A stretch of DNA of 39,499 nucleotides from a virus: UHGV virus genome UHGV-0144131. The stretch is one strand, 5' to 3'. This document shows positions 1,923 through 11,297 of the stretch, piece by piece (position 1 is the stretch's first letter; each line of letters opens with the position of its first letter). The notes under the pieces were generated by a model, which had not been told where the DNA came from, ran no database searches, and saw only the letters and a program-made list of their open reading frames with translations. The translations under genes were made by a program, and so were the position numbers.

Positions 1923-2119
1923 TACTGGCTGCGACATTTTTGAATAAAAGCGTCGACATTTCGGCGCTCATAACGAACTACTTTTGCACTGAAACGAATT
2001 GGTGCCAGGATAGCCCGATGACGATGCTTAATATTCCACTCACATAGCGTTTTCTGTGTAATACCTAACTTTTGGCATACTTCATCCGGGGTGAGTAAAT
2101 CGTCGGGTTTCTCGCTCAT
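1919..2119 (-). CDS. xis: AlpA/Xis-like excisionase or DNA-binding regulator
   Basis: 66-aa protein with a helix-turn-helix-like segment (LTPDEVCQKLGITQKTLCEW) and a basic C-terminus, resembling the AlpA family; lies next to int. Confidence 0.65.
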   Translation of the reverse strand: MSEKPDDLLTPDEVCQKLGITQKTLCEWNIKHRHRAILAPIRFSAKVVRYERRNVDAFIQKCRSQY

Positions 2120-3528
2120 GCTATACCTCTCTTTTTCATGGCATCGAGCAGGATGTCCTGCACTGTTCGTTTTGAGTTGCGCCGCTCCATCACCATTTCG
2201 TCCATAGTGTCGGCAGCAATAATGTGGTGAATAAATACCGGACGATTGTGTCCGGCCTGTATCTGCCTGGTGGGGCCGATACGTTCAATAATTTGCTGAT
2301 ATTGCTCCAGGTCCCACCAGTGTGAGAAAAATACCAGTATATTTCCGCCGTCCTGCATGTTCAGGCCGTGGCCCGCGCTGGCTGGGTGTGCAAAGAGAAC
2401 AGGAATCTTTCCGGAATTCCAGTCGCGCAGTGTCTGTGGATCCTGGTCGAGGTGACGACCGCGAGGGAATGCTTTAAGCAAGCGTTCAAGATCGTGTTTC
2501 CAGTGATAAGCAACCAGCACAGGTGCGCCAGCTGCTTCGGTCAGTATGCTGTCCAGCGCCTGTAGTTTGGTGTCATGCAGTTCTGACCAACTTCCGGTGT
2601 CGTCTGTGTATACTGCGCCACTGGCGATTTGAAGACACTTCAGTGTCTTTGCCGCGGCGTTCGGTGCTTCGATGCCTTCGCTATTCAGCTCGAGGAACAT
2701 TTCCTTTTCCATTTCACGATACTGCTGACGGGCCTTCGGGGGCATATCCACGCGGATTACGTTATGGATGGGGTCTTTGATATCGAACCAGTCGGCCGCA
2801 TCCAGCGAGAGGGTCACATCGGCTAATGCTCGCTGTATTTCACCCTGTGAGTGAGCAAAAGGTTCCAGTTTAGTCCAGCTCTGTCCCGGAAACTGTATCG
2901 AGTTGAACCAGCGTGAGGTAAACGCACCGTAAGTGCGCCCGAGACGTTGCCCCTGGTCCACAAACCACGCTTGTCCCCACAAATCTACCAGGCCGTTCGG
3001 TGCTGGCGTACCGGTGAGATTTATCCAGCGCCGGACATACTTATGCGCCACTTTGCCTAGTGCCGCAGCGCGCTTACCACCACCTCGTAGCCGGAAGGAT
3101 TTTAGCCGGGTGCTTTCATCTGGAATAACAGTACCGAACGGCCATCGTTCTCCCAATTCCTCAACCAGCCAGACAAGGTTATCGTAGTTGATGGTGAACA
3201 CGCTCGCGTTGCTGTTCGCCAGCGCCGTAGAGCGCGCTTTGGCGTTACCGATAATCGGCTGTACCTCAATATTACGCAGGTGCCCCCATTTAACAGCTTC
3301 ATCAGGCCAGGTGCTTGCTGCAACGCGTAGCGGCGCGAGGACCAGTGCGGGGCGTGTTTCTGCCCCTGCCATAAAGAGATCTTCCAGCGTAGTGAGCGTT
3401 GCCACGGTTTTACCCATTCCCATTCCTGCCCAAATATTGCAGCGGGAAATACCTATTTCGTGATTAATAATTAGTTCTTGGTATAACCGGGGGGTAAAAG
3501 ATATCATAACAAGAGATAACCTATACAC
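2116..3528 (-). CDS. SNF2-family DEAD/DEAH-box helicase
   Basis: 470 aa with a Walker A motif (GMGMGKT), a DExx box (VIPDESTRLK) and C-terminal helicase-like motifs. Start may be the internal Met at 3507. Confidence 0.8.
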   Translation of the reverse strand: MYRLSLVMISFTPRLYQELIINHEIGISRCNIWAGMGMGKTVATLTTLEDLFMAGAETRPALVLAPLRVAASTWPDEAVKWGHLRNIEVQPIIGNAKARSTALANSNASVFTINYDNLVWLVEELGERWPFGTVIPDESTRLKSFRLRGGGKRAAALGKVAHKYVRRWINLTGTPAPNGLVDLWGQAWFVDQGQRLGRTYGAFTSRWFNSIQFPGQSWTKLEPFAHSQGEIQRALADVTLSLDAADWFDIKDPIHNVIRVDMPPKARQQYREMEKEMFLELNSEGIEAPNAAAKTLKCLQIASGAVYTDDTGSWSELHDTKLQALDSILTEAAGAPVLVAYHWKHDLERLLKAFPRGRHLDQDPQTLRDWNSGKIPVLFAHPASAGHGLNMQDGGNILVFFSHWWDLEQYQQIIERIGPTRQIQAGHNRPVFIHHIIAADTMDEMVMERRNSKRTVQDILLDAMKKRGIA

Positions 3529-3549
3529 ATTCTGAGATTAGGGGTTAAA

Positions 3550-4170
3550 ATGGATATTTGGGAAAAAAGTAAAATTATTATATTTTTGCTTTTCGTTATT
3601 CCTGGTTTTATAAGTATGAAAGTTTATAGTGTTATTCATCCTAATACCGCTTTTGATACTTCTAAAGCGATTGTGGAAATTGTTTCTTATAGCTGTATAA
3701 ATTACGCAGTATGGTTTGCTCCTATATATTTTATAGAATCTGAGGGTGTATATCTCAAACATCCTGTTCTTTATTGTGCTTTATACTTGGTGATTTTATT
3801 CATTAGCCCAATATTGTTAACGATATTTTTCTCTTGGATGCGAACTTGGCGTTGGTTATGTAATTATATGCCACATCCTACCGGAAGAGCTTGGGATTAT
3901 TTCTTTGGGTTAAAAGTCCCCTGTTGGATGATTATTACGCTAAAAAATGGTAAAAAAATAGCAGGCAAGTTTGGGGCTAACTCATTTGCTTCCAGTGCAC
4001 CAGAGCCAGAGCAAATTTATCTTGAGGAACATTGGGTTCTAAACGATGATGGGGGATTTGAACGCCCTCGAGTTTCAACATTAGGAATATTAATTTTAGG
4101 TAACGATATAGAAAATTTAGAGTTTTTCCGTTTTGAACTACCAACATGCAATAATGGAGAAAGCAACTGA
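3550..4170 (+). CDS. AT-rich membrane protein of unknown function (accessory cargo)
   Basis: 206 aa; N-terminal half has hydrophobic helices (IIIFLLFVIPGFISMKVYSVI, LYCALYLVILFISPILLTIFFSW), C-terminal half is soluble. Visibly AT-rich and transcribed opposite to the surrounding operon. RBS AGGGG upstream of ATG. Confidence 0.6.
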   Translation: MDIWEKSKIIIFLLFVIPGFISMKVYSVIHPNTAFDTSKAIVEIVSYSCINYAVWFAPIYFIESEGVYLKHPVLYCALYLVILFISPILLTIFFSWMRTWRWLCNYMPHPTGRAWDYFFGLKVPCWMIITLKNGKKIAGKFGANSFASSAPEPEQIYLEEHWVLNDDGGFERPRVSTLGILILGNDIENLEFFRFELPTCNNGESN

Positions 4171-4313
4171 TGTCAGATACCAAAAGAAGTTATAAGGAAG
4201 ATGGATATACCCCTATTGAAAAAGGGTATCAGCCTAAAAATGACTTGGCTAATAATGGTTTTCAACCTTCGAAGCAAACTTCCCAGCCAGCTCCACCACC
4301 CAAAAAACCATAA
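4170..4313 (+). CDS. Small Lys/Pro-rich hypothetical protein, translationally coupled to the membrane protein
   Basis: 47-codon ORF (MSDTKRSYKEDGYTPIEKGYQPKNDLANNGFQPSKQTSQPAPPPKKP) whose ATG overlaps the upstream stop as TGATG. Too short for the supplied ORF track; hand-translated. Confidence 0.3.
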   Translation: MSDTKRSYKEDGYTPIEKGYQPKNDLANNGFQPSKQTSQPAPPPKKP

Positions 4314-4619
4314 CTAAGTATTGGGGGGAATAATTCCCCCCAGCTCTTTGCTATCCAGTACCACCACGGTAAAGCCCAGCTTTCGCAGACGTTCATGTGT
4401 GCGCAACTGGTCAGGTCGTGGTGGTTTGCCGGGGGATTTACATTCAACGAAAACGATGCGACCGCCGGGTAGCAGAACAATGCGATCCGGTACCGAGCGG
4501 CGACCGGGAGATACGAACTTAAAGGCAACCCCGCCAGCTTTTTTCACTTCAGCGACGAGATGCTTTTCGATAAGGCTTTCACGTTCATAGGCCATCATCC
4601 ACCGCCTTACGCTTTTCAC
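4314..4619 (-). CDS. VRR-NUC domain nuclease
   Basis: About 95-101 aa with a PD-(D/E)xK-like core (PDRIVLLPGGRIVFVECKSPGKPPRPDQL), typical of small phage VRR-NUC proteins. The likely start is an internal Met around 4598, which would remove the overlap with the next gene. Confidence 0.7.
   Translation of the reverse strand: MKSVRRWMMAYERESLIEKHLVAEVKKAGGVAFKFVSPGRRSVPDRIVLLPGGRIVFVECKSPGKPPRPDQLRTHERLRKLGFTVVVLDSKELGGIIPPNT
4322..4340. terminator. GC hairpin, candidate bidirectional terminator
   Basis: GGGGGGAATAATTCCCCCC is a perfect inverted repeat between the + strand cassette and the - strand VRR-NUC gene. Confidence 0.4.
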
Positions 4620-4806
4620 GCATGTTCTGCATCAGGCAAGAATCAGCCCGGCGCTCTCTCCAGTCCTGATTAAGTTCGTTACGTGATTCACGGTTTGCTT
4701 TGGCCCAGACCTTCGCCGCCCGGTCATACCCGCCGGACTGCTCAAGGCGCAAAGCCTCCTGTGCAGTCCGATAATAAAGCGGACTGTCCCGATATTTAAA
4801 TGACAT
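4585..4806 (-). CDS. Hypothetical phage protein
   Basis: ORF 4585..4836; I place the start at the internal Met (MSFKYRDSPLYY, 4806) because the longer start lies inside the 4821..4848 hairpin and a GAGG RBS precedes the internal ATG. Confidence 0.5.
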   Translation of the reverse strand: MSFKYRDSPLYYRTAQEALRLEQSGGYDRAAKVWAKANRESRNELNQDWRERRADSCLMQNMREKRKAVDDGL

Positions 4807-4820
4807 AGGGGTTACCTCAA

Positions 4821-4848
4821 ATAAATACCCCTGCATTTGCAGGGGTAT
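4821..4848. terminator. Perfect 13-bp-stem hairpin, candidate bidirectional terminator
   Basis: AAATACCCCTGCA-TT-TGCAGGGGTATTT lies immediately downstream of the TIR-like gene stop on the - strand. Confidence 0.5.
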
Positions 4849-4871
4849 TTACTTTTTAGAAAAATGATTGA

Positions 4872-5633
4872 TTAAGATGAAGCGTTCGCTATTTGAGCTT
4901 CATTAAATGTGAAACCGGCCTGTTTAAGGCGCTGGATTAAGCGAGGTACAGTTTCTCGAACATGATCATTAAAGTTGAGATAAAGAATACCCGCAGCATC
5001 AGAAGGCTGTTCAAGGTGTTGCTTCTGCAAGATGACCACGTTACTGCGGCCGAGTGATGATAACAACATCCCCATTTCTAGAACTACATTTTGACGAGCC
5101 CTGGGCAGGGCTGCTTCTTGACCGTCTCTTTTGGAGTATCCCACATCATCGGGAGTGAGAAGAACAATGCCGAAACGAGTCGCTGTCTGCCCTTGACCAA
5201 TTTCACGCTCCAGTTCTTCAATTATCGTAAGTCCAGTACCACCTGTATTCTGCAAAATAAAATGATCAGGTAACCCAAGCTTATGAAGAATGAGCTCAAG
5301 CTGCTCTTTTGCTGCATGGTCGTGACCGTGAACGATGAAAATCTTTTTGGCTGGCTCTTGAACCGGGGCTGGCTGAACTCGTTGAGCTGGCGCGTTACCC
5401 AAGTGTTCATTAATAATGGCTTCAACCTCTGGTTTTGCCGCTTGTGAGCCTTGAATCAAAATCGTTCCGGTGTGGTAAAGCGTTATGATGGCACCATTAC
5501 TTAAACGATAACAATCATGACCGGCTTTGTTTTCTTCTCCGGTAACATCAAATCCGGATTCGACTAAAAATTGACGAAAAGTTTCGACAGGGTGTGGGTA
5601 TTTGAGAGCCATTTCATTGAGATCCTGCATCAT
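4872..5633 (-). CDS. TIR-like nucleotide-binding domain protein with an N-terminal domain of unknown function
   Basis: 253 aa. The C-terminal ~150 aa begins KKIFIVHGHDHAAKEQLELILHKLGL...GIVLLTPDD, matching my recollection of the TIR-like family (COG4271/PF10137-type: hydrophobic strand + HG+D, conserved Gly, acidic patch). Tandem ATGATG start with AGGA RBS. Confidence 0.55.
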   Translation of the reverse strand: MMQDLNEMALKYPHPVETFRQFLVESGFDVTGEENKAGHDCYRLSNGAIITLYHTGTILIQGSQAAKPEVEAIINEHLGNAPAQRVQPAPVQEPAKKIFIVHGHDHAAKEQLELILHKLGLPDHFILQNTGGTGLTIIEELEREIGQGQTATRFGIVLLTPDDVGYSKRDGQEAALPRARQNVVLEMGMLLSSLGRSNVVILQKQHLEQPSDAAGILYLNFNDHVRETVPRLIQRLKQAGFTFNEAQIANASS

Positions 5634-5686
5634 TATTTTCCTATAAAATAAGCAATATTTAGCAAAGCAGCAATGACAGCGAGCAG

Positions 5687-7762
5687 CTAATCCTTACAGT
5701 AGTGGTACGCCTCAAAACCGCCAGCGTTCAGTGGGATATCGGGCGCCCATTCGGGGTTAGTGGAGAGAAGCGCGGAAAGCACTTTATCGTTGAAATCTTC
5801 TGTGTCAGGTGCTTCGGTGATCACCTCGTCGTGTACCGTCAACACAATGCTGTAACCGGCATCTTCGATAAGCGGCATGTTTCCGGCCAGAACGTCGCGG
5901 GCGGCCGCCTGGGTGACGTTCTCCACCAGCTTTCCGCCGTAGGTTTTGAGTCGTTGCCATTTACGCGAATAAGAGTTAACACCCATATAGGTGATATTCC
6001 CTTTTTCGATAACCGGAGACGGGTAGCATACAGCGCGTCCGGATGGTAGCTGTATGCGCAGCCACGCGCCATCACGTCGGATTTTAAGATAACCGCAATA
6101 CAATGTTTTTTGCGGTGTGGCGATTGCTGTGCGGACAGTGCGCTCCAGCTCGTACCAGAAATCGCAGGTCGCCGGGTGCGCCCTGCGCCACAGGCGCTTG
6201 AGCGAGTCACATGCGATGAATACACGCTCGGAAAGGCCAAAGGTCGACTTACGTTTAACCGATTCGTCGTACCAGCTTTTCGCCTCGCGGATAACATCGC
6301 GGGGAATGTTTGGCAGTGCGGCGTTCGCCAGCTCGTCGAGATCGAGACCGTAAACCAGAGCAAAAGTGATGAAAGCCGATACACCACCTCCATAACCCAG
6401 ACCGAGTTCCATGACTTTACCGATCTGACGCATGTGTTTATCAACATCATCTGGTGCAATATCGAAAGCTTTTGCATACGCCAGTTTATATAAGTCCGGA
6501 CCCGTTCCGGCGTCGTACTCTCTGAATGCATTCAGTTTCCATTCTTCTCCCGCCAGCCATGCCAGCATACGGCCTTCAATGTTTGACAAGTCACTTACCA
6601 CCAGTTTTTTGCCTGTTGGCGCGATAATGCAGCCACGTAACGCTGAACTGGTTAGTTCCATGATATTGTCAAACAGCAGGTCTGCACATCCGGCTTTCAG
6701 TGCTTCGATGCCTTCGTCTATTTGTTCCTGTTTTAGTGAAGGGCGGGGAAGGTTCTGGGGCTGGAATAGCCGTCCGGCCCAACGACCGGTACGTGACGCC
6801 CCGCAGAACTGTAGCGTACCGCGTAAGCGCCCGTCGTGGCTTACGCCTTTCATCAGTGCCTTGTATTTACTGGTGCTGGTAGTACTGGCTTGCAGGCGGA
6901 TAGCCAGCAGTTCTTTCACGGCAGATGGTAAATCGGGGTCGGCAATACGACGTTCCAGAGTACTGCGTTGCATGTCTGGTAGCTCCACACTGTAGGATTC
7001 AACAATGTGCTTAATCAACGCGTCCCGTTGTGTGGCTGCCTGCACTTCGCCATCAGTCATTTCCTGTGTACGCTTTGCCAGGCGCTTTTGCTCCTGGTCT
7101 ACCGCTTCGATCGCAGCGCGCGCGAGTTGCATGTCCATGCAGACGCCCCGGTCGTTGATCTGCTGATCACGATGCCAGAGCGCCAGCTCTGTCCCCTGAT
7201 AATTCCACTTCGGCAGACGTTTATAGACTTCGCGCATTGCCTCGATATCCAGTCCGGCGTAAGCAACAAAGCGCCGCCATTCTTCCGGGTGGGTTTTGCT
7301 GGTGGCACGGCGCAGTTTGCTGTTTTTCGGGCGGGGCTTACAGAACAGCTGGATCAGCGCTTTACCTTCTTTGTCCTTCGCTTTGTCTTGCGGGACGCCG
7401 AGTATTTCGCAGAGTTCCCCCAGAGACCCCGGGAGACCATGCGCCAGCGCCTGTACCATTGTGTCTCGCCAGCGTTTGGCACTACCTGCAACAACACATT
7501 GGGGAGTGTGCAGTAATGCATGGCGCAACATGGTGCGATCGAAATGGCTGTTGTGTGCATATATTAGTACGCTCTCATCGCTGAGAGCTGTCAGTAGTCG
7601 TGTCGGCAAGTTATAGTCTGTGGTTAAATCGTGTACGCTGACGGGGTCTTCGTCGATTGCCCATGCGAATAACATGATTTCGACTCCTTCTGCATAGACA
7701 TGGGTGCCGTTTTTTATTGGGATTTCGCTGAAAGTTTCGAGGTCTAACCAAAGTTTTTGCAT
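5687..7762 (-). CDS. Family-A DNA polymerase with 3'-5' exonuclease domain
   Basis: N-terminus has exo motifs ([16 protein letters not shown]); central and C-terminal parts have Pol A-like motifs ([15 protein letters not shown]). Start set at the ATG at 7762 ([11 protein letters not shown]); the longest ORF begins with TTG at 7804 inside the 7797..7813 hairpin. Confidence 0.85.
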
Positions 7763-7791
7763 CAAGTAAGGACCCGTTGGATTTAATAAAT

Positions 7792-7818
7792 AAAAAGCCG
7801 CCAAAATGGCGGCTTTTT
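7792..7818. terminator. Rho-independent, bidirectional terminator
   Basis: AAAAAGCCGCC-AAAAT-GGCGGCTTTTT: GC stem flanked by an A-run and a T-run, directly after the SIR2-like gene stop and before the polymerase start. Confidence 0.6.
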
Positions 7819-7838
7819 ATAACCGAAGTTAAGAATGC

Positions 7839-9341
7839 TTAATATGATAAATAATCATACAAGCATAAAAGTCGCCTGTATTGGGTATCAATTTTATGCC
7901 CTGGTTTTGTTAAATAATCTCGTAGTTGTTTCAATGAAATAGTATCGTTTAGTACGCAATACATAATCGTGTTAGCAACTTTATACTCTTTCGTTTCTTT
8001 TAGTATTTCATCAATAGACACAGCCTCACTCTTACATGTTTTAATTCGAGAAAGGTTACCAATGATTTTATCTAGCTGCCGTTTTCTGTATGTCTCGGTA
8101 TTTTCTAGTTCAGGGCAGATAGAACTAAAAGCGTATATTGGAAAGTGTTCGCTATTAGCTATGGTTTGCTTATTCAGTAATGCGATAAGCTGAGAGTTTG
8201 CTTCGTCAACTATTTTAAAATAGTTCTGTATCATTTCAGATTTTGTTTGATAAACATATTGTACGGTTCTTTCTGAACCAACAGCAATGACCATTTCATC
8301 ATTGCGAAGTTCATCTAAATTTTCTGTAATTTTAACCTTTATCTCACCACCACTTTTGATGGTACTCCAAACTTTTTGAACCTTTCTTATGTCCATTGCG
8401 GATACTGGCAAAACTAGTCCAGAGATGGCATCATATACAGCTTTGTAATTGTTTGTTTTTATTTTGTTTATTCTTATGATAGACATGCCTTCTATATCTA
8501 TGTCATGCTCCGTAATTTCAGTTGACATGCTGTCTTTTTCGTATTCAACCAAAAGGAAATTATCTTTTATCCTTTTTGCAAGTTCGGTATTTAAGTCAAC
8601 GTATGAGAATATGGTTTTTAATAAGTACTTAATGTTTTTATCGCTAATACTATACCCTATAAATATGATAGGGTTGTGTATGAATATTGAGAGTAATTGA
8701 GCGCGAATTAACTCATATTTATTGTCGAAGTTTGCGTAGTCTTCACCTGTGATAATTATGTTGTTAGGATCACTAACACAGCCATGTATTTTGTAAACTG
8801 AACCGTATGGGTTACTTAAAAGAATGTTGTTACCAATCAGTGGGTTAAATTCGAAGATATTCTCTACGAGTTGGTCGTAGTTTGTTGTAATGATGGAGCC
8901 TATGTTTTTTCTTGTTTTTATTAAGCTGTTTATTTCCTCCATCATTGACTCTTTTATCTTTAGGTCTTTAAGTATTGAAGTTAAATAAATTTTGAATCGA
9001 CTTAGTTTTTTTCCTTTTTTCATGTGCTCATAGAAAACATCATTGATGTCTTTGAACTTACCGTTACGGTCTTCTGCCAGCTTTTTATTAAAAATATCTT
9101 CAAGTTTTGTAGCTAAGATATCATATCGATAGTCGTCACCTTCTAGGCTTTCAGCTTTCAAATCGTAGTAAAACTCAGCATTACCGGTTAGTTCCATTGC
9201 GACACTCAAAAGAAGACCATCCCAGCTAAATGAGTTTTCTAGATACCGTAGGCTAAATCCTGTTCCAATGAATAGAACAGGGTGGTTTTTATAGTGACTT
9301 ACAAACTCTTGGATTTCCATACCGATTCTCAAAGTTGACAC
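7839..9341 (-). CDS. SIR2-like (SIR2_2 / ThsA-like) protein, candidate NAD+-consuming defence effector
   Basis: 500 aa. N-terminal ~280 aa carries motifs I associate with defence-type sirtuin domains: glycine-rich loop FIGTGFS, TTNYD, KIHG, then IFIGYSISD. C-terminal ~200 aa is unassigned. Strongly AT-rich; GTG start at 9341 with AGAGG RBS; own terminator at 7792..7818. Confidence 0.7.
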   Translation of the reverse strand: MSTLRIGMEIQEFVSHYKNHPVLFIGTGFSLRYLENSFSWDGLLLSVAMELTGNAEFYYDLKAESLEGDDYRYDILATKLEDIFNKKLAEDRNGKFKDINDVFYEHMKKGKKLSRFKIYLTSILKDLKIKESMMEEINSLIKTRKNIGSIITTNYDQLVENIFEFNPLIGNNILLSNPYGSVYKIHGCVSDPNNIIITGEDYANFDNKYELIRAQLLSIFIHNPIIFIGYSISDKNIKYLLKTIFSYVDLNTELAKRIKDNFLLVEYEKDSMSTEITEHDIDIEGMSIIRINKIKTNNYKAVYDAISGLVLPVSAMDIRKVQKVWSTIKSGGEIKVKITENLDELRNDEMVIAVGSERTVQYVYQTKSEMIQNYFKIVDEANSQLIALLNKQTIANSEHFPIYAFSSICPELENTETYRKRQLDKIIGNLSRIKTCKSEAVSIDEILKETKEYKVANTIMYCVLNDTISLKQLRDYLTKPGHKIDTQYRRLLCLYDYLSY

Positions 9342-9431
9342 GTAATACCTCTATAAAAACAAATAGCCGTAAAAATTCCAATAGCTTTTTGGATCTCGCC
9401 CGGCGTGTAACCGGGCGTCTATGAAGAAGGG

Positions 9432-9980
9432 TTAAATCAGTGCTTCAGCATCAGCACCTTCGCTGATATCGTCGAAATCGTCAGCGCTTGCCACTCCGCC
9501 GCCAGCGAATGCATCGCCGTCTCGCAGGAACTGGACTCCGCCGAGTGAGGCATTAATGCGTTTACCGAAATTATTGTCCTGTGCCCAGATATCGATAACG
9601 GCGTTTACATAGCACCCTGCATAGGGACGTCCATCAGCCTGAATTAGTGGCGAACGATCGCGATCAAGAACAGCTGGGCGCGCTTTGTTAGCAGCGTTCA
9701 GGAAGAAATTGCCGGGAAAGCCTTCATACTCTGCTTTTTCATCACCATCATGCAGGCACAGATTGAGTTTTTTCTCCAGCTGGTTATAAATGGACTCCCA
9801 CTTCTCCCCCCATTTTTCCTTCGCTACCTGCTTCATAGCTTTACGGATTTCTTCCAGTTGTGGGTGTTTGGGAGACATTAAAAATACTGCGGAGAAACGC
9901 GGATCGCCTTCGCCGTTTACAGTTTTAGCTTCAAACAGAGACGGGAAGGCCAGACGAACATTGTTCAGCTTCAGTTTCAT
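9432..9980 (-). CDS. ssDNA-binding protein, T7 gp2.5-like (DUF2815-type)
   Basis: 182 aa, N-terminus MKLKLNNVRLAFPSLFEA, acidic C-terminal tail ending DDFDDISEGADAEALI, characteristic of gp2.5-type SSBs. Confidence 0.65.
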   Translation of the reverse strand: MKLKLNNVRLAFPSLFEAKTVNGEGDPRFSAVFLMSPKHPQLEEIRKAMKQVAKEKWGEKWESIYNQLEKKLNLCLHDGDEKAEYEGFPGNFFLNAANKARPAVLDRDRSPLIQADGRPYAGCYVNAVIDIWAQDNNFGKRINASLGGVQFLRDGDAFAGGGVASADDFDDISEGADAEALI

Positions 9981-9995
9981 GGGGATTTCCTTAAA

Positions 9996-11297
9996 TCAGA
10001 TGAGGTCTGCGGTTAGCGTATCGTCGGATACGTCGTCGAAATCATTTACAGGGTTGATATTGAGTGCGGGGCGTGGGTCTGACTCGGGAACGATGGTGGG
10101 TTTACCATCAGCTCGTGTTATCAGTGCCTCGACTTTTGACCAACGGCGCGGACTGGCCTTTTTGATAAGTTTTTCGGCTTTTGTGGGACTAATAAGTTTA
10201 AAGTCGAATACTTCTTCAGTTTTGTACCTGAACTGGTCCTTCAGAAGTGCGCGAGCTGCCTCTTCGTCACTCCAGGCCCGGTTACCTTGTTTTCCTGTTA
10301 CCAGTTTAAACCCCGGTACCGGATGTCCGGCATTGAGTTCATTGTGAACCCGGTCCCGTACTGCCTTTAGCCAGGATTCAATAAAGTCGGCCTGGCTATA
10401 GATCTCTGCAAGCTGCTCAATGGTTAACAGAGGTACACGTGCGCTGGCATTGGTGATTATTTCGCTGACAGGCTTTGTCAGATCTTCAAAATCGCTGGCC
10501 GCTGTTTGTAAATGCTGCATTTTCTGGGCAGTGCAAATAGCTTTTGCTTTACAGAAGCGGCACTGTTTTTCTCCAGGTATGAAGTTTTCCAGTGGTAGTG
10601 TCTCAATGCCTTCGCATTCAGCAATATTGAGAACAAGGATCGCACTGGTTGCGGCCTCCAGCGCCCGTTTACCGAAAGACTGAAGTTCCTGTACGGTTAA
10701 CGACCATTCTGAAACGTGGTTGAGCCTTGGTTGGTGAATAAATAATCTTACAGTTTCAAAGTCATACAGCATGCTGAATTGTTCAAGCGCACCCAGAGCA
10801 TACAGTTGTAGTTGCTCATTTTGTTCTGCATCAATGCGGACGCCTTTGCCATATTTCAGGTCGTGGATTTGTAATTCGTTACCAGCGATGATTATGCCGT
10901 CGGCAGTTCCGAAAGATTCTTCCACACCCGTTATATGTGAGAAATCAACACGTTGTTCAACCAATAGTTCATTATTCTTTGCAAGAGTCCAGACCGTATC
11001 AACATACCGGCCGACGGCTTCGACCATTTCATCATCCACCTGTGGGCCAGATGTATCATCAGGATTTTCGCGAAGGGGGTATGAGCCGAGAAACATAGAA
11101 ACATTGCATCCGGCGTAGTGTTCCGGGTGGCTTTGCCTGTTTCGTAGAACTTTTTCAGCAAGCGCGTGCGCTGCAGTGCCCTCGATTGCAAAAGTTGTTT
11201 CTTTATCCGGTTGTGTGGCCTCCAGCGCCAGACTTCCTGGGCAGCGCATCCATCGATGCGCTGATGATGGAGAAAGTTGTGCATGAACGTCTGGCAT
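9996..11297 (-). CDS. PD-(D/E)xK Cas4/RecB-like nuclease (DUF2800-type)
   Basis: 433 aa. N-terminal [15 protein letters not shown] is a signature I recall for DUF2800; C-terminal Cys cluster ([12 protein letters not shown]) resembles the Fe-S module of Cas4/AddB nucleases. Confidence 0.65.

Follow-up and report, generated by a model that had tools for sequence, protein, structure and literature searches.

Does a SIR2-family gene lying close to a TIR-like gene make a Thoeris anti-phage system, or can the two be separate genes in the same prophage? The question is raised by the left arm of UHGV-0144131, the genome of a temperate E. coli phage whose integration site adjoins yfhL; the whole stretch of 39,499 nucleotides (nt) is called the window here, and its positions 3400–9500 are present at 100% identity in the chromosome of E. 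coli ECONIH2. The two genes are on the same strand, and the 2,205 nt between them hold a DNA polymerase gene alone, as the initial annotation had described. That annotation offered two alternatives, of which one stood (two independent systems, independently acquired) and the other, a split Thoeris-like signalling and effector pair, did not. The favoured reading, with a probability of roughly 0.8, is that these are two unrelated, self-contained morons in separate slots flanking the polymerase gene, each most likely a one-protein abortive-infection defence. It is highly probable that the genes are unrelated and independent, and not Thoeris; that both of them deplete nicotinamide adenine dinucleotide (NAD+) against phages is somewhat better than an even chance.

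Independent assortment and separate cassettes

The polymerase module, with or without flanking SIR2 and TIR genes, is found in 159 of 5,426 complete E. coli genomes. Among these 159, five carry the SIR2 gene, ten the TIR allele of the window (allele 1), and 37 a second TIR allele with 72% protein identity (allele 2). Both genes are present in three near-identical prophages (ECONIH2, TUM1880 and 23CRST009) and in Rb-50, which combines SIR2 with allele 2. The SIR2 gene occurs without any TIR in 21KM1392, TIR occurs without SIR2 in 43 genomes (STEC383 is a TIR-only strain), and all four combinations of presence and absence are represented. The comparison of related prophages that had been proposed thus finds the polymerase module without either gene in 111 of the 159 genomes and the two genes occurring independently; with the three clonal prophages counted once, Fisher's test gives p = 0.20.

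Viral contigs and other hosts give the same picture. Eleven IMG/VR contigs have the SIR2 gene in its slot together with the full backbone, and TIR is present in two of them; conversely, SIR2 is present in 2 of 39 viral contigs with TIR and polymerase, and in both cases the pairs belong to the lineage of the window. Two IMG/VR contigs (L118 and L131) encode the SIR2 protein at 100% identity and are about 99% identical to the window in DNA over positions 5672–10100, but lack the TIR cassette, the ANR gene following directly after the polymerase gene. No deposited phage genome with both genes was found. Klebsiella relatives have SIR2 in the same slot without TIR, while a Serratia relative has TIR and a DUF4145 gene in the other slot. 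Among 80 species-representative SIR2 loci, 52 of which extend at least 3 kb on each side, none has the TIR gene within 10 kb.

Each gene sits in a cassette of its own (Table 1), with borders given by blastn breakpoints against relatives lacking the gene (L004–L009 for SIR2; L003, L007, L008, L118 and L131 for TIR). In relatives that lack TIR, the polymerase gene is followed directly by the ANR gene. The polymerase gene is backbone and belongs to neither cassette. The difference in base composition described by the initial annotation is also present, with a guanine-cytosine (GC) content of 0.333 for the SIR2 gene, 0.451 for the TIR-like gene, and about 0.53 for the polymerase gene and backbone. 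Elsewhere, the SIR2 slot holds a 630-nt hypothetical gene on the + strand, an Nmad5 gene with a hypothetical gene, antA, or DUF4145. Over the polymerase-flanking slots, the alternative contents also include antirepressor-type genes (antA or BRO-N), a 204-nt hypothetical gene, or nothing, and the gap sizes on the two sides of the polymerase gene vary independently. Because their contents vary, these slots are exchangeable cargo hotspots of the kind known from P2 and P4, where fixed positions hold exchangeable anti-phage cargo that includes SIR2 and TIR proteins (Rousset et al. 2022, PMC9122126).

Beyond this phage family, homologues of both genes are solitary. Neighbour clustering gave no recurrent partner beside the SIR2 homologues, each neighbour family being present at no more than 7 of 80 loci; those that do recur are recombinases, methyltransferases, integrases, and restriction-modification or helicase genes. 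In Aeromonas, the SIR2 homologue is a lone gene flanked by thrC and housekeeping genes. The same clustering gave no recurrent partner beside the TIR homologues save cas4 and cas1, which recur in a single set of related contigs. TIR homologues are also found in small integrase- or recombinase-bearing islands, including in Ralstonia. Independent acquisition, as first proposed, is thus borne out by separate cassette borders, differing GC content, free assortment in related prophages, and solitary homologues elsewhere.

Some of these homologues have settings of their own. In Firmicutes/Clostridia loci (L014–L017, 1–7494), the SIR2 homologue lies within a recombinase-bearing island, a few genes 3′ of a 993-amino acid (aa) reverse-transcriptase protein and a HATPase_c_4 protein, with KilA-N and recombinase-fragment genes in between. 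The reverse transcriptase may be a defence neighbour of the DRT type. In Vibrio parahaemolyticus (L027–L030), the TIR homologue (6001–6762) belongs to a long run of small genes, unrelated to one another and all on one strand, which resembles a superintegron cassette array and is consistent with a self-sufficient single-gene function.

The separate terminators invoked by the initial annotation were not recovered. In a scan of positions 3400–10100 compared with shuffled sequence, terminator-like sites are at chance level (8 seen versus 7.0 ± 2.6 in shuffles), and no terminator-like hairpin was found in the gap of 34–76 nt between the SIR2 stop (7839) and the polymerase start. The sole strong terminator-like site in the scanned region is a perfect 13-bp palindromic hairpin (TAAATACCCCTGCA/TTTG/CAGGGGTATTTA). 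It lies at the TIR cassette's distal border, shortly downstream of the TIR gene, and overlaps the start codon of the ANR gene. Termination in both directions is one possible role, recombination or marking of the cassette border another.

The SNF2 and VRR-NUC genes enclose a third slot, which is occupied here by a DUF6338 gene and elsewhere by a cytosine methyltransferase or by other or hypothetical genes. DUF6338 is a membrane protein encoded on the opposite strand with a GC content of 0.34; the gene has the same position in Klebsiella relatives, and a more divergent copy is found there in E. coli STEC383. Searches of PADLOC, PHROG and NCBIfam gave no match for it, and it may be a further defence-type moron.

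Table 1. Features of the left arm of UHGV-0144131, in window positions; all genes are on the − strand unless marked +.
Feature	Position	Strand	Context or basis
SIR2 cassette, about 1.65 kb	7745..9397		slot between polymerase and DUF2815 single-stranded DNA (ssDNA)-binding-protein genes
SIR2-family gene, 500-aa open reading frame (ORF)	7839–9341	−	PADLOC PDC-S25 single-gene defence candidate; ORF, SIR2_2, PDC-S25 hidden Markov model (HMM)
TIR cassette, about 0.86 kb	4815..5671		slot between polymerase and ANR genes
TIR-like gene, 253 aa	4872–5633	−	PADLOC PDC-S35 single-gene defence candidate; ORF, PF10137, PDC-S35 HMM
TIR-like protein, N-terminal alpha-beta4-alpha domain	5394–5633		residues 1–80
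TIR-like protein, Pro/Gln/Ala-rich linker			residues 81–96
TIR-like protein, Cap12/PycTIR-type TIR domain	4875–5345		residues 97–253
Family-A DNA polymerase, 705-aa ORF	5687–7804 (RefSeq start 7762)	−	prophage replication module; DNA_pol_A E 4.2e-14
Palindromic hairpin, 13 bp	4822–4851		sole strong terminator-like site in 3400–10100
Integrase and helix-turn-helix regulator	upstream of 2116	−
SNF2-type helicase	2116–3528	−
DUF6338, low GC	3550–4170	+
VRR-NUC	4314–4619	−
ANR-family regulator	4585–4836	−
DUF2815/Enc34-type ssDNA-binding protein	9432–9980	−
DUF2800 PD-(D/E)XK nuclease	9996–11297	−

Domain make-up of the SIR2 and TIR-like proteins

The SIR2 protein is of the size of ThsA, as had been noted, at 493–500 aa. 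Its ORF opens at a GTG (9341; 500 aa), while the family consensus opens at M8, an ATG at 9320, so that the 493-aa form is the likelier product. It matches SIR2_2 (PF13289) in Pfam with an E value of 1.7e-22 and 80.5 bits against a cut-off of 24.5. In PADLOC-DB it is a full-length member of PDC-S25 (PDLC04968, 4.1e-158), its residues 4–500 aligning with model positions 4–514 of 517. Relatives in this family are about 495–500 aa long, share 52–60% identity, and range from Enterobacteria to Firmicutes and Bacteroidota. Across 60 SIR2 homologues, the Rossmann glycines G26 and G28, the asparagine N154 of a TTNYD motif (codon checked at 8880–8882) and the histidine H186 of a KIHG motif (codon checked at 8784–8786) are unchanged. 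On a profile alignment with BcThsA (6lhx, residues 101–276), N154 corresponds by position count to N112, the catalytic asparagine of that protein. The SIR2_2 domain, the TTNYD asparagine and the KxHG histidine together define a predicted SIR2-type defence NAD+ hydrolase (NADase).

In the AlphaFold model (predicted local distance difference test, pLDDT, 77), a SIR2 NADase domain covers about residues 8–310, followed by a low-confidence segment (313–363) and an all-helical region (367–500). The best matches in a Foldseek search of the PDB are with the SIR2 domains of DSR2, ThsA and KomC only, at a template-modelling score (TMq) of about 0.3. Column conservation is 79% in the catalytic core and about 52%, the lowest in the protein, over the last 100 residues; such low conservation of the C-terminus is what a specificity domain would be expected to show. 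Residues 313–363 (window 8253–8405) are among the best conserved of the family, including a LPVSAMDIRKVQ motif (75% column conservation), despite an AlphaFold pLDDT below 50; this segment may fold only upon oligomerisation or ligand binding. Two natural knock-outs of the SIR2 gene were found. In E. coli 23CRST009 (NZ_AP045766.1, 1201036–1203315), an IS1 element lies inside the gene, in a prophage that is otherwise identical to the window and has an intact TIR gene. In the IMG/VR contig L131 (9992–11501), the reading frame is in two parts.

The TIR-like protein matches CAP12-PCTIR_TIR (PF10137) with an E value of 5.8e-31 and 107.4 bits against a Pfam cut-off of 24.7, and PF10137 is the sole match to residues 97–253 among TIR models. 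It is likewise a full-length member of a PADLOC-DB family, PDC-S35 (PDLC05003, 1.7e-109), with residues 11–253 aligning with model positions 3–245 of 245; relatives are about 250 aa long and about 50% identical across phyla. Neither PHROGs nor NCBIfam gave a functional name. In SfSTING, E84 is catalytic and D110 acts in trans within the active site (PMC9402430). The residues R180, N182, E186 and D212 align with R78, N80, E84 and D110 of SfSTING and are invariant in 56 TIR homologues. With a Pfam match above the gathering score and these active-site residues, the domain is a TIR of the Cap12/PycTIR effector type.

The N-terminal domain of this protein has an alpha-beta4-alpha fold resembling the TATA-binding protein (TBP), with RNase HIII- and RnlA-like matches. 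It is modelled at a pLDDT of about 90 over the first 80 residues, as compared with 72 for the protein overall. When its profile was searched against PDB sequences, the matches were all sub-threshold (RNase HIII, E 0.14; LsoA, E 0.61). It is the variable part of the protein, with 46% column conservation versus 79% in the TIR domain, and the two E. coli alleles share 47% identity in the N-terminal domain and 89% in the TIR domain. A duplex-sensing TIR NADase, in which the RNase HIII-like domain recognises nucleic acid, is a tentative proposal, with the odds rather against it, though more likely than the cross-talk considered below.

Taken together, these features suggest a mechanism in which each gene, expressed from the prophage, would abort infection through NAD+ depletion and so shield the lysogen from competing phages. 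In PDC-S25, the variable helical C-terminus probably recognises a phage product, upon which the SIR2 NADase would be released, by analogy with a small DSR2. In PDC-S35, the variable TBP-like N-terminal domain would bind a trigger, possibly a nucleic-acid duplex. Since an active site of the SfSTING type needs a second subunit, activation would proceed through oligomerisation; as in Cap12 and SpbK, oligomers induced by the trigger could complete a composite active site with E186 and D212 contributed by different subunits.

Thoeris and other explanations

In the type I form of Thoeris, the TIR protein ThsB makes 3′cADPR (an isomer of cyclic ADP-ribose), which is bound by the SLOG domain of ThsA and turns on its SIR2 NADase (10.64898/2025.12.03.692087). 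A split circuit of this kind would have the TIR-like protein make an ADP-ribose-derived signal on infection and so activate the SIR2 protein from across the polymerase gene. Both domains of type I Thoeris are indeed present, on the same strand and in one early or replication gene block, and the SIR2 domain is distantly related to that of ThsA (PADLOC ThsA1, 3.6e-18; ThsA in the PDB, 4e-9). The receptor is missing: residues 316–500 have no STALD/SLOG match in Pfam even at E ≤ 10, whereas a genuine ThsA (L279:4407–5861) used as a positive control scores 8.4e-78 with the same model, and neither a SLOG/STALD nor a Macro receptor domain is found in the SIR2 protein. The ThsA1 match is confined to the SIR2 part (model positions 85–270 of 478), the C-terminal region being all-helical. 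The TIR partner is also of another type. It has no match to the ThsB-type models PF08937 or PF13676, and PF10137 TIRs and ThsB TIRs form separate clades (10.64898/2026.04.30.722052), placing it with the Cap12/PycTIR effectors.

The arrangement of the genes likewise speaks against a pair resembling thsA and thsB. A 2.1-kb backbone gene stands between them, their cassette borders are independent, they assort freely, and each is found mostly without the other. Four of the five E. coli prophages with SIR2 do have some TIR allele, but this association is lost once clonal copies are collapsed. The conserved segment 313–363, to which no function is assigned, is a further point in favour of a split circuit, which nonetheless appears very improbable. 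A variant specific to this lineage, in which the NAD+-derived product of the Cap12-type TIR is read by segment 313–363 and not by a SLOG domain, is judged equally improbable; if true, such cross-talk would join two genes that otherwise act on their own into a Thoeris-like circuit whose receptor is of a new kind.

A true Thoeris system was encountered in L279 (869–12049), within a type I-C CRISPR-Cas locus, where a complete thsB-thsB-thsA set, with STALD, fills a contiguous stretch flanked by cas3 and cas5. The locus also holds a PDC-S35 homologue, set apart from the Thoeris genes in the interval from cas4 to cas1. In several related metagenome contigs (L260, L270, L271, L273 and L302), the homologue has the same neighbour gene families on its flanks; cas4 and cas1 were identified in L279 only. 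L279 was the single apparent case of SIR2 and TIR co-occurrence outside the prophage and was set aside, its SIR2 protein being that of the true Thoeris and unrelated to PDC-S25.

Other roles for the two genes have to be weighed as well. One or both might serve phage replication or nucleotide metabolism, for example with the TIR-like fold acting as a nucleoside 2-deoxyribosyltransferase or nucleotide glycohydrolase, or might act in counter-defence. The genes do lie inside the replication module, slots elsewhere hold Nmad5, S-adenosylmethionine-dependent and cytosine methyltransferases, and the TIR fold is related to N-deoxyribosyltransferases. All four residues that build the NAD+ site of SfSTING are invariant, however, and the slots also hold antirepressor-type cargo, so that a position in them implies no role in replication. 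In most of the 159 E. coli prophages, the polymerase module works with neither gene present. Members of both families are for the most part not phage-borne and lie in islands of the defence or mobile type beside restriction-modification genes, in cas operons, in an array of integron-type appearance, or alone among housekeeping genes. Such a role is considered unlikely. That the genes are decaying, non-functional cargo is less likely still. The IS1 insertion in 23CRST009, the split frame in L131 and the visibly degraded prophage of some Klebsiella relatives would fit decay, but both ORFs of the window are intact and full-length for their families, and strong purifying selection is indicated by the 50–60% identity that the families retain between phyla and by their many invariant residues.

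Several points weigh against the reading of two autonomous defence genes. The PDC families are themselves predicted candidates, put forward by 'guilt-by-embedding', and NADase activity is predicted here from conserved residues. Confidence in the structure models is moderate (pLDDT 77 for SIR2 and 72 for TIR), and the conserved SIR2 segment 313–363 is without a confident model. As to independence, the raw two-by-two table for E. coli is nominally associated (Fisher p = 0.027), the association being lost only after clones are collapsed, and TIR was counted through two DNA alleles, so that very divergent alleles could escape the count. We nevertheless infer two independent morons with probable anti-phage roles, each presumably responding to a trigger of its own.

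Significance and comparison with known systems

The locus offers no new signalling architecture, and its analysis removes a tempting misannotation, as SIR2 plus TIR does not equal Thoeris. Both genes belong to catalogued candidate families, and prophage cargo hotspots are already known. What is gained is, on the one hand, a widespread family of E. coli and Enterobacteriaceae prophages with at least three exchangeable slots in the replication module, which can be mined for defence and counter-defence genes as has been done with P2 and P4. On the other hand, PDC-S25 and PDC-S35 acquire testable models, with predicted catalytic residues, putative sensor domains, natural knock-outs and single-gene controls. 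In joining a Cap12-type NADase to a domain that resembles those by which RNase HIII and RnlA bind duplexes, the TIR family points to nucleic acid as a possible direct trigger.

The PDC families comprise 145 candidates, members of which have been seen embedded in BREX, DISARM or type I restriction-modification loci (Payne et al., 10.1101/2024.01.29.577857). The proteins described here are full-length members of two single-gene ('S') families, and their homologues are likewise embedded in or beside defence loci; there is no difference in kind, and the polymerase-flanking prophage slots are an additional context. No functional study of PDC-S25, PDC-S35 or DUF6338 was found in the literature.

With type I Thoeris, the two genes share a SIR2 NADase domain whose catalytic asparagine and histidine are the same, a TIR fold, and a putative abortive-infection logic centred on NAD+. 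They differ from it in lacking SLOG/STALD, in having a TIR of the Cap12/PycTIR clade fused to its own N-terminal domain, and in being neither adjacent nor co-occurring.

Among single-protein systems, DSR2 has the same plan as the SIR2 protein, an N-terminal SIR2 NADase followed by a helical C-terminal region, and is among the top Foldseek matches of the SIR2 domain. At about 1,000 aa, DSR2 combines SIR2 with an extended C-terminal domain through which the tail tube of the phage is bound. The protein here has 500 aa, and its SIR2 domain alone aligns (TMq 0.31–0.34). Identity with DSR2 was rejected, since there is no match to the DSR2 HMM and the match to Dsr1 is weak and partial (3.7e-05, PADLOC).

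The TIR-like protein finds its best sequence and structure matches, through PF10137, in Cap12 (the TIR-STING effector of CBASS) and PycTIR (Pycsar). Unlike these, it has an alpha-beta4-alpha domain in place of a STING or cyclic-nucleotide-binding domain. Membership in CBASS or Pycsar was also rejected: the annotation of ±20 kb around it includes neither a CD-NTase nor a pyrimidine cyclase gene, there is no cyclic-nucleotide sensor, and the NCBIfam Cap12 model gives 32 bits against a cut-off of 450. A further parallel is SpbK of ICEBs1, a single-protein TIR NADase that is activated by a phage portal protein (PMC11984713); SpbK belongs to another TIR subfamily, and its N-terminal domain differs from that of PDC-S35.

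The slots themselves resemble the P2 and P4 hotspots in that positions in a temperate-phage backbone are filled with exchangeable cargo. They differ from them in belonging to another phage family and in that several lie together within the replication module, one between SNF2 and VRR-NUC, one between ANR and the polymerase gene, and one between the latter and the gene of the ssDNA-binding protein.

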